64,000 bases of DNA, from positions 17,164 to 81,163 of the forward strand of contig NZ_JAGSOY010000008.1 in NCBI RefSeq assembly GCF_018837975.1, in the 5' to 3' direction. The position numbers and the translations under genes were made by a program. Source of the DNA: Zooshikella harenae (GTDB taxonomy: Bacteria > Pseudomonadota > Gammaproteobacteria > Pseudomonadales > Zooshikellaceae). Positions within the stretch are counted from its first letter, which is position 1; every line of letters starts with the position of its first letter. Shown in pieces: positions 30,775 through 55,709 of the stretch. The notes below the pieces were generated by a model. The model was given only the letters and a program-made list of their open reading frames with translations. It ran no database searches and was not told the DNA's origin.

Positions 30775-31063
30775 AAGTCAGACCTAGTCTTATATTCGCT
30801 ACGTGTAGGCATTTCCTATGCTGACCCCAAGAGATATACCCAAACCTATAGAAATAGGTATTAAACTGATGACTATTACAAAGTAAACTTTGCCAACGAA
30901 TTGCAAAAATATGAGCAAATTATTTCAAGTAATATCCTTTGTTAATAAATTATTTTAGACACTTTATAATTAACTATGGCTAAACGTGACGAGTAAACCA
31001 TAAAAAAGGTGTGTGATAAGTATAATTCCAGCACTTAAACGAATTCATCCCAAGGAGTATTTT

Positions 31064-32938
31064 ATGCACGGTGAAGGCGATATATTGTCTAGCTTAATGC
31101 CTTTTATTGTAGGCATAGGCATTACATTATTTATAATTTTTGTATTTGTCCTTTTAATCAATAAATTTTATGTCAAAGTCGATCAAGGCAAAGCGCTTAT
31201 CGTTAATACTTTAAAAAAAGACCCCATTGTAAGTTTTACCGGCAAATTAGTGCTACCCGTTATCCATAAAAAAGAAATTATGGATATTTCTCAAAAAAAG
31301 ATTGAGATTAATCGAAAAGGTAAAGAAGGACTGATTTGTAAAGACAATATTCGTGCTGATATTGATGTTGCCTTTTTCGTACGTATAAATAAGACTGCCG
31401 AAGATGTATTACAGGTTGCATCCCGCATTGGGTGTGAGCGCGCTTCCACTAGAGAAACTCTGGAAGAATTATTCACCGCAAAGTTTTCTGAAGCGTTAAA
31501 AACTGTAGGTAAGCAGCTGGATTTTGAAGATCTATACCGTGAGCGAGCTTTGTTCCGAGACAAAATACAGGAGCAAATTGATGCCAGCTCAAATGATCTG
31601 GATGGTTATAAACTAACTGATGTTGCCATTGACTATCTAGAGCAAACACCAATAAGTTTACTAGATAACGATAATATTCTAGATGCCCAAGGTATTCGCA
31701 AAATAACAGAACTCACTGCCGCTCAAAATGTTAATACCAATAACTTAAAGCGCGAAGAAGAACTTCAAATCAAAAAGAAAAATGTCGAATCACGGGAAAT
31801 GATTCTGGAATTTGAGCGCCAGGAAGCTGATGCCGAGGCCCGACAACAGCGTGAAATTGCCAATATTCAATCGCGAGAAACAGCTGAGTCCGACCGCGTT
31901 GCCACAGAAGAAAACCTCAAAGCAGAGCAAGCTAGAATCCAAGCCGATCAAGAGATTGAGGTGCTTCAACAAAATAAACACCGTGAAATTGAAGTTGCAG
32001 AAAAGAATCGTGAGCGTGCTGTTGCTATTGAAACAGAAAAAGTTGAGCGTGTTCGTCAACTAGAAATTATTGCCAGAGAAAAAGAAGTTGAATTACAACG
32101 CATTGCTAAAGAAAAAGCGTTAGAAGAAGAACGTAAAGCGATCGCAGATGTAACTCGTGAGCGAGTAGCCGTTGACCGAACAGTGGCTGAAGAAGAAGAA
32201 AACATCAAAAGAGTACGTGTACTGTCTGAAGCCGAGCGGGCCAAAGACGTACGTGTTATGGAAGCTGAAGCTGAAGCTAAAGTCTTGCAAGAAAAAATGC
32301 GTGCTGAAGCCTTGGGCATTGAACAAAAAGGCTTGGCTGAAGCCAAAGCTTCTGCAGAAAAAATGCAATCTGAAGCGCAAGGTAAAGAACAACTGGGTAT
32401 GGCAGAAGTCCGTATCAAAGAAGCTGATGCAATCAGTCAAGAAAAACAAGCACTGGTTGATATCAAAGTCAAAATTGCTGAAGCTGAAGCAATTGAAAAA
32501 CAAGGACTTGCTGAAGCAGCAGCGATCAAAGAGAAATTCAAAGCAGAAGCCGATGGCTTACGTGAAAAATTTGCTGCAATGGGTGAAATCAGCGATGTGG
32601 CAAGAGAGCATGAAGAATTCCGCATGAAGCTAGATACTAAACATGTTGAAAACATGTCCTCAATTGCCGCTAATAAAGACATTGCCCACGAGCAAGCCAA
32701 AGTACTAGCAGAAGCTTTAAAACAAGCCAATATCGATATTGTAAGTGGAGATGGGCAGTACTTTGATCGGTTTGCCAGTGCCCTTTCGGTAGGAAAAGCT
32801 ATTGATGGTGCTGTTGATAAGTCAGTAACGTTGCAATCCATTGCTACCATGCTCAGTCAATTTATGGGCAAATCTAATAATGGAGAAGCATCAGTGAATA
32901 CCATAGATCAAGTTTCCTCTAAAGAAGAAAAAGCTTGA
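31064..32938 (+). CDS. Flotillin-like SPFH/band-7 protein (YqiK-like) with a long Glu/Ala/Lys-rich coiled-coil tail
   Basis: N-terminal TM segment then SPFH core (KALIVNTLKKDPIVSFTGKLVLPVIHKKEIMDISQKKIEI...DIDVAFFVRI); EA-repeat coiled coil; ATG at 31064 has AAGGAG at -9 (the track starts at an upstream GTG). Confidence 0.8.
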   Translation: MHGEGDILSSLMPFIVGIGITLFIIFVFVLLINKFYVKVDQGKALIVNTLKKDPIVSFTGKLVLPVIHKKEIMDISQKKIEINRKGKEGLICKDNIRADIDVAFFVRINKTAEDVLQVASRIGCERASTRETLEELFTAKFSEALKTVGKQLDFEDLYRERALFRDKIQEQIDASSNDLDGYKLTDVAIDYLEQTPISLLDNDNILDAQGIRKITELTAAQNVNTNNLKREEELQIKKKNVESREMILEFERQEADAEARQQREIANIQSRETAESDRVATEENLKAEQARIQADQEIEVLQQNKHREIEVAEKNRERAVAIETEKVERVRQLEIIAREKEVELQRIAKEKALEEERKAIADVTRERVAVDRTVAEEEENIKRVRVLSEAERAKDVRVMEAEAEAKVLQEKMRAEALGIEQKGLAEAKASAEKMQSEAQGKEQLGMAEVRIKEADAISQEKQALVDIKVKIAEAEAIEKQGLAEAAAIKEKFKAEADGLREKFAAMGEISDVAREHEEFRMKLDTKHVENMSSIAANKDIAHEQAKVLAEALKQANIDIVSGDGQYFDRFASALSVGKAIDGAVDKSVTLQSIATMLSQFMGKSNNGEASVNTIDQVSSKEEKA

Positions 32939-32942
32939 TGAC

Positions 32943-32968
32943 TATATACCCATAGTAAAGGGTATATA
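32943..32968 (+). other. Perfect 9-bp hairpin (TATATACCC-N8-GGGTATATA) just after the flotillin stop; no T-run
   Basis: Read directly; may be an RNA processing or stability element rather than an intrinsic terminator. Confidence 0.3.
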
Positions 32969-33275
32969 AACTAAAAAAACATAAAGATGCTTAAACCAAT
33001 GCTGGCTGTATTGCAGTCAGCATTAACGTCTTCGTGTACTACAGGCTCAGGAAAGTAATGGTTCAAGATGAAGCTGGACACATACCAAAGACTCCATCGC
33101 TACGAAGACAAAAATTAATGAGTTCAACCATTCCTCAAATTAACAGATTACCAAACTCAGCTAACGATCATTACCCTACATCACTTTTGTACAACAAAAA
33201 TGACCTTTTTATTTCTACTGCAAAGCGGTATTAAATTGATGATTTCTTTAGCTGTTTCAGTAAGAGGTTGTAACC

Positions 33276-36200
33276 GTGTCTAATAATACAGAACAAGTAT
33301 TGGAACAAGCTGTCCATCAAGAGGGAACTTACGAAGTTTTAAGGAAACGCCTCCAACAGCAGGCATCAGCCTTAAATGAAAAAATCGCTCAGCTAAATGA
33401 ACAACGCATTACAGCCTTTGGTAAAACAGAAACCTCAATTATTAACCGTGTTCGAGCTAGAACAGAAAATAATTGTGTTGCACGCGATATTGTCAGAATA
33501 GGCAATCAGCTGCTGTTTGGTTTTAATGTTTTCATGGGGCTAAAGAAAGAGCACTCTATTAATGATGTTTTTGCGCTTTACCAGCTTTCAGAAGAAAGCT
33601 CAAATGAATTACAAATTACGCCTATCGAACTCAAAACCAGCTTTCTTAATGAACAAAAGTTTCTAGATGACTTTAAAGAGCTTTACACTTATTACAAACA
33701 TGCCAAATTAATTCAACTTCGGGTCACCAATAATAAACTCCTTGCCGCATTCCAAATCGGTCAAAAAGTAGGTGACATTCGTGTCTTTCGCTGGTCACTA
33801 GACAATGCTATTCCCAGCTATATTGATAATCGTGGAGAACGCGATATCACCCTACCAGCAACCCATGACTTCGAGTGGATTCCCACATCAAGAGACAATC
33901 ATGTACTAGGTGAACATCCACATATCAATATACTCGATAAGGTGTTTATTGAGACGATTAATGGCGACCTCACCATTAAGATTGAAAATAATACGACTGA
34001 TGGTCAAGGCATTTATAGTGAACCAGTGGACGATTTACACCAATCACTTGATGATGCAGAAGTCTACTATGCTGACCTTATTGATCTGATTTTGCTCAAA
34101 GTAAAACCTTACCGCGAAGAATCTTACCGTTACTTAATTTTTAATACACTGCTCAATACAGTCACGCGCATCGATGAATTAGGTTCATCGTGTCAACAGT
34201 TGCCCGAAAATCACGGAATAATTTATCCTGGAGGTTACTACCTCACAACAGGTGAACACAAAACATTTTCAACCATTAATACCAAAAATTTAGTCTATAA
34301 ACGAACAATCAAGTCTCCCAATGGGGAAGATATACTTTATGTATATTATGAACCCATTGCAGGACGTTTTGTATTATGTGCATATAACCTCATTACCAAA
34401 ACTTTAAATAATCCTATCGAAGGCCATGGTTATGCATTGTACCCTGATGGGAAAATGATCATTTTCTCTGATAGTGGTGAAGAACCAACACATATTCACC
34501 CTATGCAAATCTGGCAAACACCTTTCGTCAGTGACGAATTTGCTAGCGCCCAGGAAACAGCTACTGGTTTATTCGCAACATTAGGTAATGCAGAACTTGT
34601 CCGGGCAATTTCGGACTTATACAGCATTAGTAAAGCAATTTTACAGTTACAGCCAAGCACTCAAGTTTATACATCTCTTATCAACCAGTGTAATACATTA
34701 TTTGATAGTTATTATTGGTTGGATCAACGTGAAGCCGGTGAGTTAGCACCCTTTGTTAAAGAAATTGTCAAAAATGCTGAGTTAGTACTTGATGAATTCG
34801 AAAAAGTTCAACATTTACAAAGTCGTGCAGAAGCCGCATTAAAAAAAGCTGGACAACAACAGAAAGAATTATTAAGTGGACTAACTCCTGAACGCTGGGA
34901 TAACCCAGAACAATTTGTTAACGCACTAAACAGCTTTAAAAAACAGAAAGGTCATCTTCTTACCTTACAAGACACACGCTATATTAATGAAGAACACTTA
35001 GCTGAGCTTAACAAAAAAGTTGATGAAACGATTGATAAAATCAGCCAAGCAACAATCGCTTTTATTAGTAAAGATGAGTCGCTTACCCCCTACCAGCAAA
35101 GACTTGAAACATTTGAAGACGCTATTACAAGCGCAGAGGACTCAAAGTCACTCAAAGTAATTCAAGATGATATTGAACAAACAGCAGAAGGCCTTGATTT
35201 ACTTACGACGATTCTTTCTACACTCGATGTCGAAGACGCTCCAGAGAGAACGCTCATTCTCGAAAAAGTTGCAGAGATATATGCACAAATAAACCAAGTA
35301 AAAGCCAAGTCTCGAAATAAACTAAAGTCAATTAAAGCAACAGAGTCTATTGCTGAGTTTGGGGCCCAATTTAAGCTATTCTCACTCAGTATTACTAATG
35401 CCGTCAGTGTCTGTGATACCCCAGAGCGCTGTGATGAAGAGCTCACTAAGCTAACCGTTCAACTTGAAGAAATTGAAAGCCAATTTGCAGATAATGAGCA
35501 ATATCTTGGCGAAATTCTCAATAAACGTGAAGAGTTATATGACACGTTCCAAAATCTCAAGCAAACACTGCTTGATGAAAGGCAACGCCGAGCACAGCAT
35601 CTATATGAATCAGCAATACGTGTATTAAAAAGCATCGAACGACGTAGCCAAAGCTTTTCCAGCGTTGATGACCTTAATACCTATTTTGCGTCAGATGCTA
35701 TGGTACTGAAAATTCAATCGTTTTCAGACCAGCTTATTACACTGTCAGAAAGCGTTAAAGCTGACGATATTCAATCCCACTTAAAAGGTATAAAAGACCA
35801 GGCTATCAAGTCACTGCGGGATAAATCAGAAATATACTCTGATCAAGGTAAAACATTAAAGCTTGGCAAACACTTATTTAATGTCAATACTCAACAACTA
35901 GATACCAGTTTAATACATAAAGATAATCAGCTTTATATACATTTAAGTGGCACAAATTTCTACCAACTTATAGATAATGAAGAGCTAGCAAATTTAAACG
36001 ATTATTGGAAACAAACGATTTTATCGGAAAATCAATATGTTTACCGTGCAGAATACTTAGCGTATCAAATCATAAAAACAGCCGAAAACCAACAACAAGG
36101 CTGGTCAATAGCAAAACTTCAAGAACTCAAATATGATAATGAACAGCTAATTAAAGCTATTCGTGAATATATGACACCTCGTTATCAAGAAGGTTACCAA

Positions 36201-38642
36201 AAAGGTATTCACGACCATGATTGCGCTAAAATACTAACTGCTTACTTAACATCTCTGGAAACGCAGGGTTTACTAAAATATTCAGGCCTGTCAAGGTGTT
36301 GTGCTGCGTATTTTTGGATATCAGTCCAAGGTAACTCATCTCAGGTAAATGTGCTATCAGGTAAAGCACAAGGCGCCTTTTTACTTGCGAATCAAATGGG
36401 TGAAAGCAAAGCATTAAATGCTCTTACTCATGAGTTGGAAGATTATCTAAAAGCATTTTATCATGAGAAATCACCCAGTTTAGTTATAGACTTTACCAGT
36501 ACTGCTAAGTATTTAATCGAAGTGCTAGCAGTATCTCCCACCCAGTTTATGGTTAGTGTACAGGGGCAGCAATTAGCAGAACAATTTGAGAAAACCCTTC
36601 ACAACTTAAATTATTACAACATATTCGAAAAAACGCTAAGGGAATTAAGCGATAATTTTCAATCACAATGGGAGTTACTGCAACATTGGCTAAGCGCACT
36701 ATCAAAAGAGATACCTGAGAATATACTTAATACTGTTATTGCTGATGCAGTTACTGTCATTTTAACAAATAAAAAACTTTCCCTTAAAGCACTTTCACTT
36801 CCAGAAAGTAATAGCATTCCAGGTCTGTTAGGAGATCATCCTCGAATCCAACAAAGTGAATTAACCTTCTCTCTAGCTGAATTCAATAATCGTTTGCAGC
36901 ACTTTACCCATACTGACACTGTTAACTTTGAAAAACTAGTCAGCATCAAGCAAAAGTTACTTGAAAAAGAACGCAAACGACTACGTCTTGACGACTTCAC
37001 TCCAAAACCTCTAACATCTTTTGTCCGAAACAAACTAATCAATGATGTATACTTTAAAATCATTGGTGACAACCTTGCAAAACAAATGGGAGCTGCAGGT
37101 AACCAGAAACGCTCAGATTTAATGGGCTTATTATTGCTTATTTCACCACCTGGTTATGGTAAAACAACATTAATGGAGTATATCGCCAACCGACTGGGCC
37201 TCGTCTTTGTCAAAGTAAACTGCCCCTCGCTAGGTCATCAAGTCATCTCTCTTGACCCAGAAGAAGCTCCTAATGCAACAGCAAGACAAGAACTTATTAA
37301 ATTAAATTTAAGTTTTGAAATGGGCAATAATGTCATGTTGTATTTGGATGATATACAACACACGCACCCTGAGTTTTTACAAAAGTTTATTTCTTTGTGT
37401 GATGGTACGCGACGCGTGGAAGGTGTTTGGGATGGAGAAACCAAAACTTATGACTTAAGAGGTAAAAAGTTTTGCATTGCAATGGCAGGAAACCCTTATA
37501 CTGAATCAGGCGAAGTTTTCAAGATTCCTGACATGTTAGCTAACCGGGCCGATATTTATAATCTTGGGGATATACTCAGTGGTTCAGAAGAAACGTTTGA
37601 GTTGAGTTACATTGAAAACAGCTTAACCTCTAATTCTGTATTGGCACCATTAGCAACTCGCAACTTAGCTGATGTTTACCATCTGATTAATATGGCTAAA
37701 GGCAAACAGTCGACAAATGGACAATTAGAATACGACTATTCAAGTGCAGAGCTTGAAGAAATATTAAGCGTTATACGAAAGCTTCTCTATATTCAAGAAT
37801 TTGTCCTTAAGGTTAATCAAGCTTACATAAAATCTGCTGCTACAGCAGATGCCTACCGGACCGAACCTCCTTTTAAACTACAAGGAAGTTACCGGAATAT
37901 GAATAAAATGGCTGAAAAAGTGGTTGCCATTATGAATGATGAGGAGCTAAACAACCTGATACTTGACCACTATGTAGGAGAAGCTCAAACATTAACTTTT
38001 GGGGCAGAAGAAAACCTGCTTAAACTTAAAGAGATAATGCAATTTTTGACTGAAGAAGAGTCTGTTCGTTGGCAAAAGATCAAAGATGAGTTTAGTAAAC
38101 GGATTGCACTAGGCGGAGATGAGCAGGATACACTAGCCAAAATAGCTTATCAAATTGCTAGCTTAAATCAAGGTTTAACTGGTATCGAAAAAAGCTTAAG
38201 TCATTCAACATCAACACAAACCTGGTCAGAGCATCTTACTCATTTTCAGCAAACAGTACGCCAGACACTTGGACAGCAACAAAAGCAATCTCTTGCCGCC
38301 AGTAAAATGCTTCAGCATCAATTGGGTAATATCAATAATGCAATGGCAATGATTGGAGAAAACCTGGTAGAAAGTAGTCATGGTTTACAACACATTACGG
38401 CGTTAAGTGAAGCCTGCCAGCAAATCCAGAAAAGCCTTGAAACTATCGACTTTTCTATCAATGTTGTTAACCAGCCAAGTCCAGTATTAGAACAATCACT
38501 GAGCGCACTTGCAAATACCGTAGAGTCATCGCTAATGCCTGTAGTTACGACTATGAATCATAAAATAGGGCTGGATCAAAATATATTGCGTAAAGTTAAT
38601 GAACTCTCAGATCAACTTAAAGCTATTTCGGATCGTCAATAA
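33276..38642 (+). CDS. Giant (1788 aa) multidomain protein: N-terminal beta-rich region, about 750 aa of coiled coil, and a C-proximal AAA+ ATPase of MoxR/dynein (AAA_5)-like type
   Basis: Single uninterrupted ORF; GTG start with AAGAGG at -8; Walker A LLISPPGYGKTTL at about aa 1290; Walker B VMLYLDDIQH; sensor-1 FCIAMAGNPY; ARADIYNLGD; no family recognised. Confidence 0.7.
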   Translation: MSNNTEQVLEQAVHQEGTYEVLRKRLQQQASALNEKIAQLNEQRITAFGKTETSIINRVRARTENNCVARDIVRIGNQLLFGFNVFMGLKKEHSINDVFALYQLSEESSNELQITPIELKTSFLNEQKFLDDFKELYTYYKHAKLIQLRVTNNKLLAAFQIGQKVGDIRVFRWSLDNAIPSYIDNRGERDITLPATHDFEWIPTSRDNHVLGEHPHINILDKVFIETINGDLTIKIENNTTDGQGIYSEPVDDLHQSLDDAEVYYADLIDLILLKVKPYREESYRYLIFNTLLNTVTRIDELGSSCQQLPENHGIIYPGGYYLTTGEHKTFSTINTKNLVYKRTIKSPNGEDILYVYYEPIAGRFVLCAYNLITKTLNNPIEGHGYALYPDGKMIIFSDSGEEPTHIHPMQIWQTPFVSDEFASAQETATGLFATLGNAELVRAISDLYSISKAILQLQPSTQVYTSLINQCNTLFDSYYWLDQREAGELAPFVKEIVKNAELVLDEFEKVQHLQSRAEAALKKAGQQQKELLSGLTPERWDNPEQFVNALNSFKKQKGHLLTLQDTRYINEEHLAELNKKVDETIDKISQATIAFISKDESLTPYQQRLETFEDAITSAEDSKSLKVIQDDIEQTAEGLDLLTTILSTLDVEDAPERTLILEKVAEIYAQINQVKAKSRNKLKSIKATESIAEFGAQFKLFSLSITNAVSVCDTPERCDEELTKLTVQLEEIESQFADNEQYLGEILNKREELYDTFQNLKQTLLDERQRRAQHLYESAIRVLKSIERRSQSFSSVDDLNTYFASDAMVLKIQSFSDQLITLSESVKADDIQSHLKGIKDQAIKSLRDKSEIYSDQGKTLKLGKHLFNVNTQQLDTSLIHKDNQLYIHLSGTNFYQLIDNEELANLNDYWKQTILSENQYVYRAEYLAYQIIKTAENQQQGWSIAKLQELKYDNEQLIKAIREYMTPRYQEGYQKGIHDHDCAKILTAYLTSLETQGLLKYSGLSRCCAAYFWISVQGNSSQVNVLSGKAQGAFLLANQMGESKALNALTHELEDYLKAFYHEKSPSLVIDFTSTAKYLIEVLAVSPTQFMVSVQGQQLAEQFEKTLHNLNYYNIFEKTLRELSDNFQSQWELLQHWLSALSKEIPENILNTVIADAVTVILTNKKLSLKALSLPESNSIPGLLGDHPRIQQSELTFSLAEFNNRLQHFTHTDTVNFEKLVSIKQKLLEKERKRLRLDDFTPKPLTSFVRNKLINDVYFKIIGDNLAKQMGAAGNQKRSDLMGLLLLISPPGYGKTTLMEYIANRLGLVFVKVNCPSLGHQVISLDPEEAPNATARQELIKLNLSFEMGNNVMLYLDDIQHTHPEFLQKFISLCDGTRRVEGVWDGETKTYDLRGKKFCIAMAGNPYTESGEVFKIPDMLANRADIYNLGDILSGSEETFELSYIENSLTSNSVLAPLATRNLADVYHLINMAKGKQSTNGQLEYDYSSAELEEILSVIRKLLYIQEFVLKVNQAYIKSAATADAYRTEPPFKLQGSYRNMNKMAEKVVAIMNDEELNNLILDHYVGEAQTLTFGAEENLLKLKEIMQFLTEEESVRWQKIKDEFSKRIALGGDEQDTLAKIAYQIASLNQGLTGIEKSLSHSTSTQTWSEHLTHFQQTVRQTLGQQQKQSLAASKMLQHQLGNINNAMAMIGENLVESSHGLQHITALSEACQQIQKSLETIDFSINVVNQPSPVLEQSLSALANTVESSLMPVVTTMNHKIGLDQNILRKVNELSDQLKAISDRQ

Positions 38643-38657
38643 AATATATTTTTCACT

Positions 38658-39239
38658 ATGATTAATTCAAAGATTACTAATATTTCCCGCTGGAAGTGTG
38701 TAATAGGTTTACTAGGTTTCATGTGGATACTACACATGGTAAACCTACTACTCGGCTATCAGCTCAATCAATTTGGGTTAGTGCCTCGTACCACAAGTCA
38801 TTTTACTGCAATATTTTATTGGAGCTTTTTGCATGGTAGTCTTGACCACTTACTTACCAATAGCATCCCTTTCACAATTTTAGGACTATTGGTAGCTGTA
38901 CGCGGGAGCTACTACTTCTTTTTAACAACTCTGTTTATTAGTATTACATCTGGTATCGTCGTATGGCTGTTTGGTAGAACAGCCATACACATTGGAGCCA
39001 GTGTATTAATTTATGGCTATTTTGGCTTTCTAATAAGTCGAGCTTGGTTTGACCGGCAACCTCTCTCACTTATCATTGCTCTTATTGTCGTTATCACCTA
39101 TAGCGGCTTAATTTTTGGGCTATTTCCAAGCACACAACAGATCTCATGGGAAGGCCATTTAGCAGGATTAATAAGTGGCAGCCTCATGGCATGGCTTTTG
39201 TGTAAACAAAAACCTACTAAAAAGCAATTACAGGAGTAA
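38658..39239 (+). CDS. Rhomboid-family intramembrane serine protease-like protein
   Basis: 193 aa, six hydrophobic helices; candidate catalytic Ser in HIGASVLIYGYFG and His in WEGHLAGLISG; starts 16 nt after the giant gene. Confidence 0.55.
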   Translation: MINSKITNISRWKCVIGLLGFMWILHMVNLLLGYQLNQFGLVPRTTSHFTAIFYWSFLHGSLDHLLTNSIPFTILGLLVAVRGSYYFFLTTLFISITSGIVVWLFGRTAIHIGASVLIYGYFGFLISRAWFDRQPLSLIIALIVVITYSGLIFGLFPSTQQISWEGHLAGLISGSLMAWLLCKQKPTKKQLQE

Positions 39240-39244
39240 TAACT

Positions 39245-39487
39245 ATGAGTACAACAACACACGACTACATCAAGCTGGCAACCTACGCAGTAAACATTTT
39301 TGCGAGTGATGGTAAGCTAAATGCACACGAGTTTGACCAATTAATGACTATTGCTCTTCGCGATGGTGTTGTTGATGACGATGAAAAAAGAGTGTTAACA
39401 AACATTCTCAATAAAGTAAGAGCAGAAGAAATGACGGATGACTTACAAGCGAAAATTACCCAAGTTAGAGAAAAGTATAATTTCTAA
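39245..39487 (+). CDS. Small TerB-like (tellurite-resistance TerB / DjlA N-domain-like) protein
   Basis: 80 aa; IFASDGKLNAHEFDQLMTIALRDGVVDDDEKRVL matches the ADG-x-L...E...L TerB pattern; AGGAG at -9; starts 6 nt after the rhomboid gene. Confidence 0.45.
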   Translation: MSTTTHDYIKLATYAVNIFASDGKLNAHEFDQLMTIALRDGVVDDDEKRVLTNILNKVRAEEMTDDLQAKITQVREKYNF

Positions 39488-39548: not shown

Positions 39549-39587
39549 AGCAATATTGCTATACTAATCTTTAATAAGTATAGCAAT
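39549..39587. promoter_or_regulatory. Nested palindromes upstream of the methyltransferase gene: AGCAATATTGCT (12-bp perfect palindrome) and ATTGCTATACT / AGTATAGCAAT (11-bp inverted repeat, 11-nt spacer)
   Basis: Read directly; lies 55-95 nt upstream of the MTase start, a typical operator position. Confidence 0.4.
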
Positions 39588-39643
39588 TTCACTATGAGAT
39601 GAATTTTGTTACTCTAAAATTTACCTGCATTCAGTGAGTGATC

Positions 39644-40339
39644 ATGACAATATTACAAGAACAACAAATTATCGAGTCTTGGTATAAAAACGCTAAATCA
39701 TGGACTGATGCTATTAAAAATAAACAAATTGCAAGTAGAGAACATACTACTAATCAGGCCGTTATTGATGCTATTCTCACCTATTCACCTAAGACTGTTC
39801 TCGACATTGGCTGTGGTGAAGGTTGGTTAACACGAACTTTAACAAGCCATAACATCAATACTTATGGCATTGATACAGTACCAGAACTCATTGCTTATGC
39901 TCAACATCAGGGACAGGGAAAATTCAGCTTGATGTCATATGATAATATTAATCCTAATACAATTCAGGATAAATTTGATATTGCTGTGTGCAATTTTTCA
40001 CTCTTTGGTAAACACTCAGTTAATAATCTGATAAAGAAAATACCCCGCCTATTGAATGATAAAGGGTATTTTATTTTACAAACACTTCACCCACTTATTG
40101 AGCACAACAATAGAGTGTATCAAGATGGCTGGAGGGAAGGATCTTGGTGTAGTTGTGGTAACAGCTTTTCTGATCCGGCTCCATGGTACTTTCGCACGCT
40201 TGCCTCATGGGTCGACCTTTTAGCTGATTGTCATTTTTTAGTAACAAGTATCAAAGAGCCAAAACCTCAGGACACCCCTCATCCATTATCTATCATATTT
40301 ATATGTCAAAAAACTGAGATTGACCACCATACTTCATAA
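39644..40339 (+). CDS. Class I SAM-dependent methyltransferase
   Basis: Motif I VLDIGCGEGWLT; the post-I acidic residue and motif II (DIAVCNF) are present; the ORF track starts at GTG 39638. Confidence 0.7.
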   Translation: MTILQEQQIIESWYKNAKSWTDAIKNKQIASREHTTNQAVIDAILTYSPKTVLDIGCGEGWLTRTLTSHNINTYGIDTVPELIAYAQHQGQGKFSLMSYDNINPNTIQDKFDIAVCNFSLFGKHSVNNLIKKIPRLLNDKGYFILQTLHPLIEHNNRVYQDGWREGSWCSCGNSFSDPAPWYFRTLASWVDLLADCHFLVTSIKEPKPQDTPHPLSIIFICQKTEIDHHTS

Positions 40340-40353: not shown

Positions 40354-41508
40354 CTACTTTTCTACATCTTGCATAATATGAAATATGTGTTTTTTTAGAT
40401 CCAGCAACTTTTCCGCTTCCAAAATACAAAGCCCCATTAACCTTGCACGTTCTTTATTATGTACATTAAAGTTTCCAAATGATGCGATGACGCCACAAGC
40501 ATTTTTACCACCTAATCGATGTAATAATGCTTCCATTTTATATATTGTATTAATTCCACTCTTTCTTTGAGCCAAAAAATTCCTAGCTTTACACTCAATA
40601 ATAAATAACTGATTATTTGCTAAAAATACAACATCTAACTCATTTCTAACGGTACTATTTCCATAGTCCCAGACAACTTCAACTCCTCTGGCAACATCTT
40701 GAATATACTCACTTTCTCTCGCTATTTTATCTAACTCAGAAAAAACATATTCCTCTAACCAAAAACCATTACAGAATGCCCTATCCTCTTCACTAGAAAA
40801 AATTAAACGCTTTTTCTCTAACGTAACCAAGTGGTAGAACTCCAAAGAACCCACAAGCTCTTGAAGCTGAGCATTATAATACTCCTGGCTGGATAGCCGC
40901 CTAGAACATAACTTTAGGTTATTCGCTGTTGAGGCTAAATGATTTAGTAGTGCCAACCCTTTGGTCAAGTGCCTAGCACGTTTAACCCATCGTTTACCTA
41001 AACGTTGAGCTTCTTGGGAAATCTTACTCGTTTGCTGGTGCGTAACTGCAACGCCCTGTAGCTGAAAATAGCGCTCAATTGAGAGATGATCTTCTAGGTT
41101 TATAACCCCTTTATTTGCAGGGTTATTTAGCCAAACAACTACATCACTTGTTTGATTGACCTGAAAAATACCCAAATTTTCCTGTTTAAAAACCTCATAA
41201 GCTGCAATCGCTAAAACTTTATTTCCTCCTGAAATATTTAGCTCATAGTCAACTTTATCTGGATACTGCAATAACGCACTAATTGTAATTAAAAGATCAT
41301 TGAAGTTCCAAGCATCATCTATAAAAACTGTTTTAGTAGTAATTCCTATTTCTTCTATGAAAGCCGATGCACTATTAACAGCTTGCTGTAAACGTGTTAT
41401 AGCAACAAAAACAACTTCATTTGGTTGCATTCTAGAATCAAGAATAGGGGTCACATTTGCACTTACAGATTCACTAAATAAAATAATTTGTACTCTTTTT
41501 TTAGCCAT
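40354..41508 (-). CDS. Card1/Can2-like protein: N-terminal Rossmann/CARF-like domain plus C-terminal PD-(D/E)xK nuclease (DUF1887-like)
   Basis: C-terminal ELDVVFLANNQLFIIECKARN gives D...(13)...E-x-K; the N-terminal half is predicted alpha/beta with an ISGGNK loop; about 384 aa, matching Card1/Can2 size; the first ATG is the fifth codon after the track's TTG start. Confidence 0.55.
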   Translation of the reverse strand: MAKKRVQIILFSESVSANVTPILDSRMQPNEVVFVAITRLQQAVNSASAFIEEIGITTKTVFIDDAWNFNDLLITISALLQYPDKVDYELNISGGNKVLAIAAYEVFKQENLGIFQVNQTSDVVVWLNNPANKGVINLEDHLSIERYFQLQGVAVTHQQTSKISQEAQRLGKRWVKRARHLTKGLALLNHLASTANNLKLCSRRLSSQEYYNAQLQELVGSLEFYHLVTLEKKRLIFSSEEDRAFCNGFWLEEYVFSELDKIARESEYIQDVARGVEVVWDYGNSTVRNELDVVFLANNQLFIIECKARNFLAQRKSGINTIYKMEALLHRLGGKNACGVIASFGNFNVHNKERARLMGLCILEAEKLLDLKKHIFHIMQDVEK

Positions 41509-41736
41509 CACAGTACTCGTCAAGTAAGCGAAAGTCTTATCTTTTCATTGCTAAATGTAAAATACCATACGCACTGTAACTTTTTGCAAAACATGACCAA
41601 TAAAATAATTAGAACAACTCAAGCATTACACTTAAAAAGTGAATCAGAAACGGGGTACTGAATAGACATCAGATAACACAATGATCGTATCTGATACAGA
41701 CTCATACAATCTTATTCAAAAGGATAAATCATGAAA

Positions 41737-41767
41737 TAAAAAAACCACCTAACGGTGGTTTTTTTAT
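41737..41767. terminator. Bidirectional rho-independent terminator (AAAAAAACCACC-TAAC-GGTGGTTTTTTTATT)
   Basis: 7-bp stem flanked by an A-run on one side and a T-run on the other; sits between the Card1-like gene start and the stop of the HTH gene. Confidence 0.65.
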
Positions 41768-41782
41768 TGAAAGAGTATATAC

Positions 41783-42265
41783 CTAGTGGCAACCAAGCTT
41801 ATGTAACTCTACTGCATTCTCAAGCCATTCTACTAACTGAGAGAGAGAATACTTTTGGCTTTGCATCCGCTCTGTGCATTCTTCCACAATATGATCAGGT
41901 GCATCAGTTAATAGTTTAATAAGTTGTCTTGCCTGGTCCCTCATCTCTTTAGGGAGACATGTAAAAACTGAAAGAAAGTGCCTTTCATCAGGCATAAGAG
42001 TGCCTGGAGACTCTTCAACCCCCAGTAGATAATCCATCGGAACTAACAATACATGGGTTAATTTGCGAAGTATATCACTATACAGACTGACAGATTCACT
42101 AGTAGGTATACCTTGCACAAGTAACTGCTCAATAACAGAGACATCAACACCAGAGCGCGTTGCAAGCTCATCTACATCGATTTCTATATCAATCATTGCT
42201 TGCCGCAAACGCGTTGAAAGCTGCTGACTTAACCCTACGTCAGCCATCATAAAAGGAATTTCCAT
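41783..42265 (-). CDS. Hypothetical protein with an XRE-like helix-turn-helix
   Basis: 160 aa; IDVDELATRSGVDVSVIEQLLVQG resembles an HTH_XRE recognition region; followed by the bidirectional terminator. Confidence 0.45.
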   Translation of the reverse strand: MEIPFMMADVGLSQQLSTRLRQAMIDIEIDVDELATRSGVDVSVIEQLLVQGIPTSESVSLYSDILRKLTHVLLVPMDYLLGVEESPGTLMPDERHFLSVFTCLPKEMRDQARQLIKLLTDAPDHIVEECTERMQSQKYSLSQLVEWLENAVELHKLGCH

Positions 42266-42684: not shown

Positions 42685-43365
42685 TTACCCTATCACGTTC
42701 AATTTATTGTGCCAGTAAAACGTGTTTACTGGACTATCGTTAGTAGTCAATAATGTTTTCCAACAACAATAAATGTCCAAAATGCTATTTACAGTAAACT
42801 CTTTTTTCCAAAACTGTCGACCATAAAGAAAACTCAAGGCAAATTCGCGCCAACTTAAAAAACAAGAAAAAGCTAAATCAGCAGCTTCGAATATACATTC
42901 CCAAGCTTTTTCTTCACTGATATAACCCACGAAGGCCCCTCGCCTAAACAGATGAATACATGTAGCAATATCCCATGCTTTAATTCCCATATGAGTTAAT
43001 TCTGGAAGACTACGTTTTACAAACTGGAGAACCTGGTACTCTTCTTGCTCCTGTTTATAGGTATCAATATACGATAATTGCCTTTTACTATCGATTGTAT
43101 TCAAAAACCTTGCTCTTGCACTAAAGGCAGCATTATACCCCCCCTGCTCAATTAACCAGTTTTTTAATTCAATGAGAGAGCTTCCACAAGTTACTTTCCA
43201 ATCTCTTTGCAACTGGGTTCGCCAATGGTTTTTATATTCTTCACTATCATCACAGCCAAATAATGTTTGGTTAGCGTCTTCCAGAAGAACATCATGAAGA
43301 CAGGCCAGTCCGATAGCCCTCATCTGTTGAGATGTGTGTTGAGGGGGGTAATTAAACTTCATCAT
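42685..43365 (-). CDS. DUF1266 (YbeU-like) protein
   Basis: 226 aa; last gene of an hscC/djlC/ybeU-like trio that mirrors the E. coli ybeU-djlC-hscC locus; family call from memory. Confidence 0.55.
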   Translation of the reverse strand: MMKFNYPPQHTSQQMRAIGLACLHDVLLEDANQTLFGCDDSEEYKNHWRTQLQRDWKVTCGSSLIELKNWLIEQGGYNAAFSARARFLNTIDSKRQLSYIDTYKQEQEEYQVLQFVKRSLPELTHMGIKAWDIATCIHLFRRGAFVGYISEEKAWECIFEAADLAFSCFLSWREFALSFLYGRQFWKKEFTVNSILDIYCCWKTLLTTNDSPVNTFYWHNKLNVIG

Positions 43366-43378
43366 CTAGTTTTTGACC

Positions 43379-45751
43379 TTATGGACAAATATTTAAGCTA
43401 CTTGGCTCTTCATCAGAAACTAAGGCAAAATCAGCCCAATTAATTACATCCAAAAGTGAATATATATTAATGAATATTTTTTGATACTCTTTTTCATCAA
43501 CACACATCGTGTTTTGCATATTTGTTGATTCAGACGCCAGTACAATCCAATGATTAATCAATAAAAGCCATTGTTCATAGTCTTCACTAAACACATTAAG
43601 TAGTCTTTTTGCTTTAACCCAATGACGCATTGCAGCAACAAAATTTTGCATACCAAATTCAGCCAATCCTAATAAAACTTGACTAGCTGCAGATTGCTCT
43701 TCTTTTACAGTCATCGCCCCAGTTGCTTTACTGGGATTACATTCCCAAATATACAGTAAGCTTGAAAAAAAACTGTGAATACTTACAGCTAAAACTGGGG
43801 GAAAGTGACCATTAGACTCAATACTTTTTAATAAATCAAAGGCAGAAGAATATTGTTTTTGCAAAAATAGAATAATAAGTTTATGCCAAAGCCACCAAGT
43901 ACTCACTGATGCAGCCTTATCAAAAACCTCAAATAAATCAACTAGTTGATCAATTTTTTTATAGGTTATACATAAATAAATACATCGTCGAACCAGACTT
44001 TGACATGTAAATACTTCCCAAGCTTGTACAGCATAATCTAGAGCATCTTTTGTGCGATTCAGGCCAAAGCTTGCTTCAGTTAATATCCATAAAAGCCGTA
44101 GTGAAAATCTCACACGATATAAATCATTTTTATTAATATAATTCACTACCTTTTGATATTCATTTAAGGCTAATAAGCAAGCAGCAATCTCCACTTTTGC
44201 ATTGATATTTGCATTATCTATGTGAACACATTTACGGAAACTGGTTAACGCCTGCTGGTAATTTTTTACTAGATAGTAACATTGTCCTAATCGAAACCAA
44301 TCATTCGCGGATATATCAAGCTGTGTTAATACTGATTGGTAATCCTTAATCGCATCACTGTAATTTGCCAATTCAAAATTACAGCGAGCACGACATGATA
44401 AGTAAATATGATTATCATCATTGATATCAATATTAATCAAATTCAGTGCATGCAGGTAATAACCCAACTCTAAATAACAGACCACTAGTTCTTTTTTAGC
44501 TTCAGTACATACCTCCTCACACTGCTGTATGTACGTAATATAATGTTTAGCATCAGCATGTCTGTTTAAGTTTGTACAAACTTTAATTTTGAATAAAATA
44601 CTCCATACAGCAAGCCGATAATCCTGTATTGCAGGCAACTGATTTAAAGTAGTTAGTGCTTCATTCGCTTTTCCTAAAGCTAAGGATACCTTTACCTTAA
44701 GTAAGGCAGTTACAACTTTAAGCACATGACTCTCAAACTCTTGAAAATCAATTTCAGCAAGTAATATTAGCATTCTCTCATTAATAGGTGCCTCAAGCAG
44801 CCTCACTAACGCACTTTCGATTTCATCAGAAGGTATTTGGTTTGAGTTTAAAAGTGATGTATAAAGCCCATGGATGGCCTCATGATTCTGAGGATCAATA
44901 TTAAAAATCAAAGTGTAAATATTTAAAGACTGGCTCCAGTTTTTTTGTTTTACTTCTATTGTTGCAATTCTTAATAAGAAATCAAGATCATTATCTAACT
45001 GATAACCAGCATAAAAACAGTCTTTAGCTCGTTCCAACAAATTAGCTAGCTCAAATGAACACCCTAGCAATCTCAGGAGCACAGGATCTGCATCATAGAT
45101 TGCGTATGCAGACATCAAATGCTCAATTGCAGACCTAATATCATTACAGATTAAAGCATGACGCCCTTCAAGTCTCCGTTGTAAATACTCATCAGCATTG
45201 ACTGATGGTAGCCCTTGCAGTCCATCATAAGTTAAAAATCCAGGGCCATCTTTAAAACTTCCAAAAAAACGATCAACTAAGCTTTCAGGATACTGGCGAT
45301 AAAAAATCCACTGATTAGCTATCCAGTCAAAGTGACAACTTAAGCGTTTTAAAATAGTTGGGGGAACAAAAGGGTGATCTAAAAAAAACCGTAATAATTG
45401 TACAGAAAGCTCTTCTTTCGCTTCTTTGTTCAGACCATTTATACTTAATAACCAGTTATCCCAAACAATACTCTGTACTCTTTGTGAAAAGTCAGAATAA
45501 ATCATCTCAACAGCGTACAGTGCTTGTTCTACACCAGTCATCCCTACGTTATGCTGATGAAGCCGGTAACCATCAACATCTAACTTATTATGCTTAGCGC
45601 TTAACAGAGCTTGCTCATAAGCCTCTCTTAAACCCTGAAATGCGGACACATCATCTAAATGACCAAGTGCTTTTAGCTGCTTAGCATAAGCTTTCTTAAT
45701 TGCCTGCACATCACTTGTAGGCTTAATCCTTAATTGTTCCCAACAGTCCAT
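43379..45751 (-). CDS. DjlC-like co-chaperone: N-terminal J-like domain (HLD in place of HPD) plus a long TPR-repeat region
   Basis: MDCWEQLRIKPTSDVQAIKKAYAKQLKALGHLDD aligns to a J-domain helix II-loop with HPD replaced by HLD; many TPR-like repeats follow; the track starts at GTG 45760. Confidence 0.6.
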   Translation of the reverse strand: MDCWEQLRIKPTSDVQAIKKAYAKQLKALGHLDDVSAFQGLREAYEQALLSAKHNKLDVDGYRLHQHNVGMTGVEQALYAVEMIYSDFSQRVQSIVWDNWLLSINGLNKEAKEELSVQLLRFFLDHPFVPPTILKRLSCHFDWIANQWIFYRQYPESLVDRFFGSFKDGPGFLTYDGLQGLPSVNADEYLQRRLEGRHALICNDIRSAIEHLMSAYAIYDADPVLLRLLGCSFELANLLERAKDCFYAGYQLDNDLDFLLRIATIEVKQKNWSQSLNIYTLIFNIDPQNHEAIHGLYTSLLNSNQIPSDEIESALVRLLEAPINERMLILLAEIDFQEFESHVLKVVTALLKVKVSLALGKANEALTTLNQLPAIQDYRLAVWSILFKIKVCTNLNRHADAKHYITYIQQCEEVCTEAKKELVVCYLELGYYLHALNLINIDINDDNHIYLSCRARCNFELANYSDAIKDYQSVLTQLDISANDWFRLGQCYYLVKNYQQALTSFRKCVHIDNANINAKVEIAACLLALNEYQKVVNYINKNDLYRVRFSLRLLWILTEASFGLNRTKDALDYAVQAWEVFTCQSLVRRCIYLCITYKKIDQLVDLFEVFDKAASVSTWWLWHKLIILFLQKQYSSAFDLLKSIESNGHFPPVLAVSIHSFFSSLLYIWECNPSKATGAMTVKEEQSAASQVLLGLAEFGMQNFVAAMRHWVKAKRLLNVFSEDYEQWLLLINHWIVLASESTNMQNTMCVDEKEYQKIFINIYSLLDVINWADFALVSDEEPSSLNICP

Positions 45752-45777
45752 AGCGATCACTTTTAGTTAACTTAAAA

Positions 45778-47466
45778 CTACATTTCTGCTTCCAAGTGGT
45801 CTAACAAAGCACTTACTTCATGGTAAGCTTCCGCAATATAGTGCTGATCCTGACGAGCTAAAGCCGTTTCAAAGTCAACAATGAGCTGTCCTATTAATAT
45901 TCTCTTTTCACCTAAAGCTTGTTCAAAGAGGCGCTCACCTCTTGCCAGTAAAAAACGATTTGGCAAGTGTTCTCGAGGATGAATTTTCAAACGGCTTAAT
46001 GCTTGTAGTCGTTGAGTAATTTCTTCTGCTGAAAACTGCCCAGGATTTTTTTCAATAACTGTTGAAAAAGTTTCTGTGGTTGATAGCACAGTTACTTCAA
46101 CCTCAAGCAATCCATTTACATCATAGGTAAAACGAACATCAACCGCTTCTTGACCAGCTTGTGCCGTAGGAACATCAACGGAAATATCTCCTAATTTTAT
46201 ATTATTCTTAACCCGCCGACTTTCTCCTTGATAAATTTGAATACATACTTTTGATTGTCGGTCTGCTGTAGTATAAAAACGTTCCACACGTGAAATCGGA
46301 ATAATACAATTTCTTTCTAATATTGGCTGATAAAGTCCTGTTTCTGTGTATTTACCTCGTGATGCTGCCACCTCAACCCCTAATGAATAAGGACAAACAT
46401 CGGTCATTACCACTTCTTCAAGTGCTTTATCCTGTACAAGCAGTCCAGCCTGTATTGCTGCCCCCATTGCAATAACCTGATCCGGATCTATCCCAGTAAC
46501 GGGAAATCGTGAAAATATCTTGGTCGCCATCGTTTTGACCATCGGCATGCGTGTAGCCCCACCGACTAAAATTAACTGATCGATATCTGTTGGCAGAAAA
46601 CCAGCGTCTTTTAGCACCCTTTCCACAGGTTTACGTAAACGATCCAATAAGTTTGCAGCTACTTGCTCAAACTCTGATCGTTTAATATCCATTTCTATCG
46701 AGGCAGATGCTAATACTACTTTCAAAGTAGTCTGCTGTTTCGTACTTAATTCATGTAAAACACGTTTCACTGCTTGCCGTAGTGTCGTACGCTCTGTTTG
46801 TGTCAGTGACTCCAAAATAATCGCCTGCTTTGCACAACAGTAACGTACCAACTGCTCTAAAAAGTCCTCTCCACCTAAATGGTTGTCACCTGCACTGGCA
46901 TTGACTTCTATAACACCGTCAAACAGTTCAAGTAGTGATACATCGAAAGTCCCGCCACCTAAGTCAAGTACTATCACCCGTTGCTCACGCTGTTCCTGAA
47001 TACCATAAGCAAGTGCCGCTGCAGTTGGCTCATTAACCAAACGAGTTACCTTCAATCCTGCTATTTCACCTGCCAAGCGCGTCATTCTGCGCTGATGCTC
47101 GCTAAAATAAGCTGGTACACTAATCACTGCTTCGGAAATATGCTGTCCAGTGTAGTTTTCCGCATCTTCTTTCAAGGCCCGTAAGACAAACGAGGCAAGT
47201 TCATGAGGTAAGAACTGTTGCGCACCCAGACCAATCTCACGTTGACTTCCCATATATCGCTTAAATACTTCAAAGGTATGAAGAGGGTGGGTAAACAGAC
47301 GCTCCTGTGCCACACGACCAACGACTATATCACCGTTATCGTCAAGACCAACGACAGAAGGTGTAAGCTTTTCACCTAAAGCATTGGGAATAACATCTGT
47401 CTTACCGTTTTGCCAAATAGCGATAAGCGAATGTGTAGTGCCAAGATCGATGCCTACAATACTCAT
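45778..47466 (-). CDS. hscC: Hsp70-family chaperone HscC (Hsc62-like)
   Basis: 562 aa; MSIVGIDLGTTHSLIAIWQNG...PSVVG; DLGGGTFDVSLL; shorter than DnaK with a truncated lid, as in HscC. Confidence 0.85.
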   Translation of the reverse strand: MSIVGIDLGTTHSLIAIWQNGKTDVIPNALGEKLTPSVVGLDDNGDIVVGRVAQERLFTHPLHTFEVFKRYMGSQREIGLGAQQFLPHELASFVLRALKEDAENYTGQHISEAVISVPAYFSEHQRRMTRLAGEIAGLKVTRLVNEPTAAALAYGIQEQREQRVIVLDLGGGTFDVSLLELFDGVIEVNASAGDNHLGGEDFLEQLVRYCCAKQAIILESLTQTERTTLRQAVKRVLHELSTKQQTTLKVVLASASIEMDIKRSEFEQVAANLLDRLRKPVERVLKDAGFLPTDIDQLILVGGATRMPMVKTMATKIFSRFPVTGIDPDQVIAMGAAIQAGLLVQDKALEEVVMTDVCPYSLGVEVAASRGKYTETGLYQPILERNCIIPISRVERFYTTADRQSKVCIQIYQGESRRVKNNIKLGDISVDVPTAQAGQEAVDVRFTYDVNGLLEVEVTVLSTTETFSTVIEKNPGQFSAEEITQRLQALSRLKIHPREHLPNRFLLARGERLFEQALGEKRILIGQLIVDFETALARQDQHYIAEAYHEVSALLDHLEAEM

Positions 47467-52302: not shown

Positions 52303-53314
52303 GTGTCACGATATCCTGTTGCTGTTGATCCGCAGAAAACCAGTGATAGCTTGGCAATACCACTTCATGATGATTTTTTAAGGACTGGTGTTCACCCAAC
52401 CATGTTGTCCAACCTAACCGGCAACGACTGGTTTGTTTTAACTCCAGTTTAGGCGCTTCATAAGGCCTAAGACCCAACTTGATGTCATATTCAAGTTGAT
52501 CGCGTTGAATAAATTTAATTAACTCATGTAATGGACGATAATCATCCCCAGAAGGAAGAAACCGTTCAAAACGTGAAAAATCCAAGTCATCAATGACTAC
52601 TCTGAACTTACCAGAACGATCTCTGACAGAGGCACCTAATACTAAGTTAATTCCCATTTCACAGTTTGCCGCCCCAAGCCGGTTACGCTGTTCCTCTGGG
52701 ATTGGTACCACACGTAACATACACTGCTGAATTGAAATGGCTTTATGCTGAAAATAATGCCGCATAATTCCTGACAATACCCCCGCAGAATGAATACGCA
52801 TACTCAATAAGCCTAAATAAGGCAGCAACCGATGCCAATGTAAGTGAGTACTTTTTCTAAGGTTAAGCTCACCTAATCCTATCAGCGAAAACATGTGCTG
52901 AGAGAACTCATCTAACGCTTCTTCTTGATAGTTAAGGTAGTATCGATATTTTTTCCAACCGTGATACAGTAGCTCAATATATCGGTGGTTAAATAAATCC
53001 ATGAAATCACGTATTGGATGATTTTCTGGATCATTTTGTACAATTCGTTCTGTATAAAAAGCAGGTAATGGGGAAGCTGGTCCGTACAGTCCCATAAAAT
53101 TAACTGTCAGCAAGTAATCTTGCCTTGCTTCTAACTGCCTTATTTCAAGCGAAGCAATATCACTCGGAGGAAATGCAAGCGAGGCATTTGCCCGATAACG
53201 CATGTTAATTGGCTGGTCATCAAACTTAGCAGATACAGGAATATAGTATGATGTTAGTAAATGAACCGCTTGATAAAAGCTATATTGCCTGCTGTTGACC
53301 AGCAAATCATACAT
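52292..53314 (-). CDS. tssG: T6SS baseplate protein TssG
   Basis: Begins MYDLLVNSRQYSFYQAVHLL (a TssG hallmark); its start overlaps the tssF stop (TAATG); the track reports an upstream GTG at 53350. Confidence 0.8.
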   Translation of the reverse strand: MYDLLVNSRQYSFYQAVHLLTSYYIPVSAKFDDQPINMRYRANASLAFPPSDIASLEIRQLEARQDYLLTVNFMGLYGPASPLPAFYTERIVQNDPENHPIRDFMDLFNHRYIELLYHGWKKYRYYLNYQEEALDEFSQHMFSLIGLGELNLRKSTHLHWHRLLPYLGLLSMRIHSAGVLSGIMRHYFQHKAISIQQCMLRVVPIPEEQRNRLGAANCEMGINLVLGASVRDRSGKFRVVIDDLDFSRFERFLPSGDDYRPLHELIKFIQRDQLEYDIKLGLRPYEAPKLELKQTSRCRLGWTTWLGEHQSLKNHHEVVLPSYHWFSADQQQQDIVTHEA

Positions 53315-55098: not shown

Positions 55099-55114
55099 CG
55101 CACTTTTCCCCTTA

Positions 55115-55531: not shown

Positions 55532-55640
55532 GCGCTCTCTTTATTAAATCAGTTGGAGTTAAACCCATTGATAAGAAATATACCTTTTACTAAAAAAGTA
55601 TATTTCTAGCTAAAGAATAGACTTATAGAAAGAGATCCAG

Positions 55641-55709
55641 GTTGTTGGTATTGCTAGATCCATACTGGCGAACTTTTGCCTTTCATATAAGTTCAGCAAT
55701 ACCAACAAC
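55641..55709. promoter_or_regulatory. Perfect 14-bp inverted repeat GTTGTTGGTATTGC ... GCAATACCAACAAC (41-nt spacer) inside the 212-nt tssC-tssE intergenic gap
   Basis: Read directly; it is the only long non-coding gap inside the T6SS structural operon. Confidence 0.5.

Follow-up and report, generated by a model that had tools for sequence, protein, structure and literature searches.

We found that a gene on the minus strand of a 64,000-nucleotide stretch of Zooshikella harenae DNA (contig NZ_JAGSOY010000008.1, positions 17,164 to 81,163; the whole stretch is hereafter the window) encodes a protein with a CARF sensor domain and a PD-(D/E)xK nuclease domain (40354..41508). The evidence tips, by a modest measure, towards a stand-alone, ligand-gated nuclease of the VC1899 branch of its family, which is maintained by selection and whose ligand is probably other than canonical cyclic tetra-adenylate (cA4). 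Three features point away from canonical cA4, namely the signature of the ligand pocket, the position of the protein in the family tree and its genomic context. Of these, the altered CARF pocket speaks against mere activation in trans by cA4 and in favour of a ligand-gated nuclease that either stands alone or has been repurposed.

The coding sequence (CDS) is complete in the list of open reading frames (ORFs), running from an ATG start to a stop codon at 40354..40356 and specifying 384 aa. An alternative TTG start at 41523, 15 nt upstream of the ATG, would give 389 aa, and the five added residues are poorly conserved. The 384-aa product is 100% identical to an NCBI protein of Z. harenae named 'Card1-like endonuclease domain-containing protein / DUF1887 family CARF protein'. 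Residues 6–147 (41068..41493, minus strand) form the Card1-type CARF sensor domain; they cover all 146 positions (1–146) of the Pfam profile PF23400 (CARF_Card1), with 28.0 bits against a gathering cut-off of 24.6. The nuclease domain spans residues 240–377 (40378..40791, minus strand) and matches PF09002 (Card1_endonuc) with an E-value of 1.7e-26 and 92.9 bits, against a gathering cut-off of 26.4. Additionally, the PADLOC profile PDLC01880 (CARF4--CARF_PDDEXK) matches the protein over its full length at 2.6e-100. An earlier sequence-only reading of the window, made without database searches, had called the protein a Card1/Can2-like CARF plus PD-(D/E)xK nuclease; the family profiles, the matches to solved structures, the predicted fold and the catalytic residues all agree with that call. 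It had also described a Rossmann-like N-terminal domain with a Gly-rich loop, leaving open that the domain might not be CARF-like. The domain is real and of the Card1 CARF type, since PF23400 scores above its cut-off, and the loop reads SGGNK (residues 93–97). The GGNK portion (residues 94–97, 41218..41229, minus strand), placed by translation and an alignment census, is the counterpart of the GGTK ligand-phosphate loop of Can2 and Card1, with Lys97 corresponding to Lys99 of Can2.

The catalytic core, E290-L-D292-x12-E305-C-K307, was located by translation at residues 290–307 (40588..40641, minus strand; ELDVVFLANNQLFIIECK). The nuclease motif proposed from the letters alone thus stands, but with a spacing one residue shorter than the D-x13-E-C-K originally given. 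All 141 family representatives share D292, E305 and K307, and 140 of them have E290; the catalytic residues E252, E290, D292, E305 and K307 are all intact in the 384-aa protein. Counterparts of this core were mutated in SthCan2 (E276/D278) and TsuCan2 (E302/K304) in previous work (PMC7969007).

When the protein was compared with the sequences of solved structures using phmmer, the best match was VC1899 (1XMX; 2.9e-45, full length), followed by Can2 (7BDV; 5.4e-25) and Card1 (2e-7). A family profile gave the same order against these structures (VC1899, 4e-115; Can2, 2e-85; Card1, 4e-40), with the alignment starting at residue 4. An AlphaFold2 model made from the 141 family representatives had a mean predicted local distance difference test score of 96.3 and a predicted template-modelling (TM) score of 0.93, and it displayed a Rossmann-like beta-alpha pattern. 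Foldseek comparisons, which the sequence-only reading had proposed for Can2, Card1 and Can1, matched the fold of all three. The best match was again VC1899 (1XMX; TM 0.90, root-mean-square deviation 2.4 Å), followed by cA4-bound Can2 (7BDV; TM 0.80–0.89), Cdn1 (0.79) and Card1 (0.67–0.72, with 6XL1 at 0.72). Judged by sequence and modelled fold, membership in the Can2/Card1/VC1899 family (CARF4 plus DUF1887; PF23400 plus PF09002) is confirmed, and on the same grounds the closest characterised relative is VC1899, neither Card1 nor Can2.

VC1899 of Vibrio cholerae is the founding member of DUF1887/PF09002. Its structure was solved in 2004, and we know of no ligand or role for it. It shares with the Zooshikella protein the domain order, the size, the intact nuclease residues and the status of an orphan in housekeeping synteny without a type III neighbour, whereas the two are only ~30% identical and their genomic neighbours are wholly different. 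The group as a whole is said to fall in clade CARF4 in the 2020 CARF classification of Makarova and colleagues. The CARF4 label has been confirmed for Can2 (PMC12825302). VC1899 was described as an orphan CARF protein without type III CRISPR association, lacking the Can2 contacts to cA4, unable to nick DNA and endowed with a weak RNase activity that cA4 does not regulate; its authors considered that it is perhaps a degenerate enzyme 'cast adrift' (PMC7969007). Such orphans are not confined to this family, as every CARF family was reported in 2014 to have members unlinked to CRISPR-Cas, with the VC1899 family (PF09002) as one example (PMC4012209).

The same CARF4 plus PD-(D/E)xK architecture and an identical catalytic constellation are found in Can2 (Sulfobacillus thermosulfidooxidans, 7BDV; Thermoanaerobacter brockii, 8Q3Y) and Card1 (Treponema succinifaciens, 6WXW). 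In contrast to the Zooshikella gene, which has no cas context, these belong to type III CRISPR loci and are activated by cA4. The equivalents of Can2 Ser19 and Lys99 are kept in Zooshikella, while that of Thr42 is Ile (Thr in one orthologue), that of Tyr118 is Gln, and GGTK has become GGNK. Cdn1 (8Z4I/9U49), a CARF4 nuclease with more than one activating cyclic oligoadenylate (PMC12825302), shares clade and fold (TM 0.79) and illustrates that CARF4 pockets can shift their ligand range, but it is CRISPR-associated and only 15% identical to the Zooshikella protein. Can1 of Thermus thermophilus (6SCE) has homologous CARF and nuclease modules, fused and duplicated in a 638-aa monomer, whereas the Zooshikella protein is single-copy and presumably dimeric.

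Four cA4 contacts are conserved in Can1 and Can2, represented in SthCan2 by Ser19, Thr42, Lys99 and Tyr118 (PMC7969007); the corresponding residues of VC1899 are D9, D34, R96 and V115. We used the residues at these four positions as a pocket signature across the family. When 1.84 billion representatives were searched exhaustively, 1685 relatives, themselves 50%-identity representatives, were retrieved at E ≤ 1e-3, and those from outside Zooshikella reached at most about 36% full-length identity. For a survey of a genome collection, whose returns did not include Zooshikella itself, 80 genomic loci were fetched, ORFs were called, neighbours were clustered and recurrent clusters were annotated; the pocket census comprised 79 loci. 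Linkage to cas genes was judged within ±10 kb, on contigs that were often short and metagenomic. Recurrent neighbour clusters included Cas10/Csm1, Cas10/Cmr2, Cmr3, RAMPs, Csm6, NE0113 and Cas1, and CRISPR arrays were found in 13 of the 80 loci. The canonical signature, S-[S/T]-K-Y, was cas-linked in 28 out of 34 loci, compared with only 2 out of 45 for any other signature (Fisher p = 2e-13, without phylogenetic correction). Of the six canonical-pocket loci without cas genes, several lay on short contigs.

The window protein belongs with the second category. Its signature reads S-I-K-Q (S-T-K-Q in an orthologue of 82% identity), with Ile at position 37 also in one further orthologue and Thr in the 82% orthologue. 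Ser12 and Lys97 are retained and the Tyr is replaced by Gln116, so that two to three of the four Can2 cA4 contacts are kept. Over nine pocket positions (Ser12, Glu13, Ser14, Ala17, Ile37, Asn96, Lys97, Gln116 and Gln119), six differ from the consensus of the 28 cas-linked members (Q14S, P17A, S/T37I, T96N, Y116Q and P119Q), and the six changed positions are 89–100% conserved in those members. The pocket also differs from that of the VC1899 clade, which reads D-Q-D-R...L-R-V-P, against S-E-S-A...N-K-Q-Q in Zooshikella, where Ser and Lys are kept and the acidic residues are absent.

Genes from Vibrionaceae, Shewanella and Pseudoalteromonas all (27/27) read D-x-R-V/M like VC1899, and all lie amid housekeeping genes that differ between genera: methyl-accepting chemotaxis protein, FadR and HIT genes in Vibrio, LacI in Photobacterium, SPFH and DUF599 in Shewanella, and phytase and tRNA_edit in Pseudoalteromonas. 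No conserved partner gene across the orphan family members was found among the surveyed neighbours. In a sample made up mostly of closely related vibrios, the remodelled pocket of this Vibrio-type clade had a mean top-residue frequency of 0.88, compared with 0.75 for the whole CARF domain, and the D, R, V/M and P of the pocket are common to genera whose proteins are only ~35% identical overall. Such conservation suggests, at the level of sequence, that this pocket was retuned rather than left to decay or drift. In a distance-based neighbour-joining tree, the Zooshikella proteins (bootstrap 100) were sister to the VC1899-type orphans of Vibrionaceae (Vibrio/Photobacterium), Shewanella and Pseudoalteromonas (bootstrap 91), and the joint clade was recovered in 75 out of 100 replicates.

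Two further observations were made among the related loci. A metagenomic member with an S-S-K-Y pocket lies between the genes for alanine racemase and ZipA, with no cas genes within ~8–10 kb (L003:8442-9587 and L004:3056-4201); canonical-pocket orphans, therefore, also exist, and they may act in trans. In addition, a protein of ~213 aa with an N-terminal hydrophobic segment, a CARF-like 'VDVTGGKTPMSLGAF' motif and no Pfam match is encoded in 12 related loci, mostly type III-linked (L007:617-1258 on the plus strand, L006, L008, L015, L017, L020, L026, L031, L034, L038, L040 and L056). Its gene is directly upstream of, and overlaps, the Can2 gene in the three loci inspected (L006-L008), and from its sequence the protein is a possible partner of Can2, acting as a CARF effector or regulator bound to the membrane.

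The genomic setting of the Zooshikella gene is that of an ordinary core chromosome. The window begins with the trp operon, crp, rpe, djlA, lptD-surA-pdxA-rsmA-apaG-apaH, folK/folB, tsaD and dnaG-rpoD. It continues through a somewhat AT-richer stretch, in which DUF2170/PspA genes precede those for a DUF3686 ATPase of 1788 aa, a rhomboid protease, a TerB-like protein of 80 aa and a methyltransferase. Past the methyltransferase come the CARF nuclease gene, a 160-aa protein, DUF1266, a DjlB-like J-domain/tetratricopeptide repeat (TPR) protein and an HscC-type Hsp70, and the window ends with a sigma-54 activator, ClpV and type VI secretion system (T6SS) genes. Pfam and PADLOC scans covered most ORFs of at least 100 aa, the exceptions being the ORF at 24017..24361 and six within the T6SS cluster (52292..57758). 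They returned only housekeeping, stress and T6SS genes, and no match to cas, CD-NTase/SMODS or other defence-cyclase families was obtained in the scanned ORFs, including those without a Pfam match. Neither tandem repeats nor a CRISPR array were found in the 64-kb window, which likewise contained no Rfam match. For the scanned ORFs and the repeat search, the initial observation that the 64 kb hold no cas10/csm genes, CRISPR array or CD-NTase is thus upheld. An effector of a cyclic-oligonucleotide-based antiphage signalling system was considered and rejected, as no CD-NTase/SMODS match was present in the scanned window ORFs and the sensor is CARF, not SAVED. Furthermore, no cas genes were found within 10 kb of the orthologue in two other Zooshikella genomes, and a literature search on CRISPR in Zooshikella yielded nothing relevant.

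These two genomes also allowed us to assess how the gene is maintained. In Zooshikella sp. RANM57 (GCA_050749885.1), the orthologue is 91% identical and the gene order from ClpV through the DUF3686 ATPase is preserved; in a third Zooshikella assembly, the orthologue is the 82% one mentioned above and the order is preserved up to the contig end, just past the target gene. The reading frame is unbroken in the three species. Ratios of non-synonymous to synonymous substitution (dN/dS), estimated by the Nei–Gojobori method from the three genomes, were 0.13 and 0.08 for the whole gene, compared with 0.03–0.20 for its neighbours. By domain, they were 0.06–0.25 for CARF, 0.04–0.11 for the middle helical region and 0.04–0.07 for the nuclease. 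The gene is under purifying selection in all three domains and vertically inherited. It is no relic, given that the locus is syntenic in three genomes, dN/dS is 0.08–0.13 and the catalytic residues are intact. These data bear directly on the proposal made for VC1899 (PMC7969007), which, transferred to Zooshikella, would make the gene a degenerate leftover that has lost its type III system and now has no function. The missing partner genes in the 64-kb window, the altered pocket and the weak, unregulated RNase of VC1899 (PMC7969007) would fit a remnant. However, dN/dS values of 0.08–0.13 overall and below 0.26 in every domain, a frame kept intact in three species, retained catalytic residues, a conserved locus and a sister orphan clade whose pocket is more conserved than the rest of its CARF domain make this explanation highly improbable.

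According to a second alternative, the protein is an ordinary Can2 effector, supplied in trans with its activator, cA4, by a type III CRISPR-Cas system that lies at another site in the Zooshikella genome. It would account for the full-length Can2/Card1 architecture, the intact active site and the purifying selection, as well as for the retention of Ser12, Lys97 and the GG-x-K loop. The closest relatives by identity, moreover, are cas-linked (L005 and L010). Yet six of the nine pocket positions have changed relative to the cas-linked members, and non-canonical pockets are cas-linked in only 2 of 45 loci. The gene sits in housekeeping synteny with no adjoining cas genes, whereas nearly all canonical members have cas genes within 10 kb, and in the tree it falls with the lineage of VC1899, which does not respond to cA4. 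We therefore regard a trans-served Can2 as unlikely, although less so than a functionless remnant.

For the stand-alone, ligand-gated nuclease that we favour, a mechanism can be outlined from its relatives. By homology with Can2 and Card1, the protein would form a homodimer through its CARF domains, and a small ligand would bind in a composite pocket at the dimer interface, to which each protomer would contribute Ser12 and Lys97. Once bound, the ligand would move the two PD-(D/E)xK domains into an arrangement suited to cleavage, whereupon the metal sites formed by E290, D292, E305 and K307 could cut RNA and/or nick DNA. The ligand itself would be some other, probably nucleotide-derived, signal made elsewhere, rather than canonical cA4 from a type III system.

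Several observations weigh against this reading. Two of the four cA4 contacts of Can2 and Can1, Ser12 and Lys97, are retained, and one orthologue has Thr37. The Zooshikella pocket is not acidic, unlike the pocket described for VC1899. With the Ser/Lys pair kept and no acidic residues, a cyclic oligoadenylate (including cA4) or another nucleotide ligand is conceivable. The grouping with the orphan clade is only moderately supported and involves long branches, and by raw identity (34%) the nearest relatives outside Zooshikella are cas-linked Can2 proteins, one encoded beside RAMPs and Cas_VVA1548 (L005) and the other beside Cas10, Cmr3, Csm6 and an array (L010). The predominance of closely related vibrios in the pocket-conservation sample weakens the inference of retuning. 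Finally, the Zooshikella genome may carry a type III locus or another cyclase outside the window.

The genes flanking the nuclease gene offered one more alternative, namely that its product and the adjoining methyltransferase make up a restriction-modification pair, with the product as the endonuclease. The downstream neighbour (39638..40339, plus strand) is a class-I S-adenosylmethionine-dependent methyltransferase (Pfam Methyltransf_23/11/25). Adjacency to a PD-(D/E)xK nuclease gene and a weak NCBIfam match of the nuclease to the type II restriction enzyme UpaP162 (E = 0.014, 15 bits against a cut-off of 100) are what such a pair would have in its favour. Conversely, the N-terminal domain of the nuclease is a CARF domain and not a DNA-recognition domain, and the methyltransferase is not conserved as a partner in other family members. 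The methyltransferase is of the BioC/UbiG/TehB type, its best NCBIfam matches being BioC- and UbiG-like and far below their cut-offs, and it matches no DNA-methylase family. The two genes are convergent, with their 3′ ends 14 nt apart. A class-I small-molecule methyltransferase without a DNA-methylase match, convergent with the nuclease gene, effectively refutes the pairing, which we consider scarcely credible. A palindrome with 14-nt arms (ATTGCTATACTAAT / ATAAGTATAGCAAT) and a 5-nt spacer (39555..39587) precedes the start of the methyltransferase gene by some 50 bp; from its sequence it is a plausible candidate operator of that gene, and we saw nothing that links it to the CARF nuclease.

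On the other side, the upstream neighbour encodes a 160-aa protein (41783..42265, minus strand) that is linked to the nuclease by position only. It is possibly an XRE/CapH-like helix-turn-helix (HTH) protein, with weak matches to PADLOC capH (1.4e-3) and the NCBIfam ECH_1013 transcription factor (0.015). The flanks given by the sequence-only reading, an XRE-like HTH gene and a methyltransferase gene with a palindromic operator, are thus borne out for the methyltransferase and the palindrome, while the HTH nature of the 160-aa gene rests on those weak matches. Its homologue cluster was found in Zooshikella only, and the gene is syntenic in the two other Zooshikella genomes (L001 and L002). It is unusually conserved between Zooshikella genomes (95–98% amino acid identity, dN/dS 0.04), and its synonymous divergence (dS) is about half that of its neighbours (0.19 versus 0.34–0.50, and 0.55 versus 1.0–1.4). 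Between the two genes, a repeat search and RNA folding revealed a perfect 15-nt inverted repeat with an A-run, a GC stem and a T-run (41735..41768, minus strand; −18.8 kcal/mol, z −5.8, with 0 out of 200 shuffles equally stable). It is probably a bidirectional intrinsic terminator that sets the CARF nuclease gene apart from the 160-aa gene, and on account of this hairpin the nuclease gene looks monocistronic. An operon with the 160-aa gene is unlikely, as the −18.8 kcal/mol hairpin and its T-run intervene. In a scan for consensus promoters, matches were no commoner than in shuffled sequence, and none lay at 41509-41735 on the nuclease strand.

Some other features of the surroundings are worth recording. 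From ~28000 to 46000, the G+C content is 0.34–0.38, compared with 0.41–0.44 in the flanks; the stretch spans the PspA/DUF2170 genes, the DUF3686 ATPase, the CARF nuclease and the HscC cluster. It is syntenic in RANM57 and, to the contig end, in the third assembly and, therefore, is not a recent island. The HscC-type Hsp70 (562 aa), the DjlB-like TPR protein (793 aa; PF27158 DjlB_C_2nd in orthologues) and DUF1266 (226 aa) form a triad (42685..47466, minus strand) similar to the ybeU-djlB/djlC-hscC cluster of Escherichia coli. Another gene run (31013..39487, plus strand), kept in RANM57, comprises a 641-aa ORF without a Pfam or PADLOC match, the 1788-aa DUF3686/DUF7902/AAA protein, which carries the label 'ATPase involved in DNA repair', the rhomboid protease and the 80-aa, weakly TerB-like protein. 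At the edge of the T6SS cluster, beside SapC, TssA/VasJ and ClpV, a 1150-aa ORF (60212..63664, minus strand) has no Pfam (E ≤ 1e-6) or PADLOC match.

Orphan CARF nucleases such as VC1899 are already known, the Zooshikella gene is already correctly annotated in NCBI, and it reveals no new kind of system. Orphan CARF proteins are, nevertheless, a recognised loose end, to which our analysis adds that such nucleases can be under clear purifying selection, that pocket residue signatures part cas-linked members from orphans almost cleanly, and that the Zooshikella pocket is of a type intermediate between canonical Can2 and VC1899. The Zooshikella protein is, thus, a reasonable second, pocket-distinct test case for what the VC1899-type orphans sense. 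A broader idea, which we put forward only tentatively and hold to be somewhat doubtful, is that the Zooshikella gene and the VC1899-type orphans make up a single old Can2-like lineage domesticated off CRISPR, with pockets retuned, and not degraded, to one or more ligands other than cA4. If so, they would constitute a chromosomal, CRISPR-independent, ligand-gated nuclease pathway, in which the pocket of Zooshikella (S-E-S...N-K-Q-Q) would count as a variant of its own, possibly responding to a different ligand from that of the Vibrio type.

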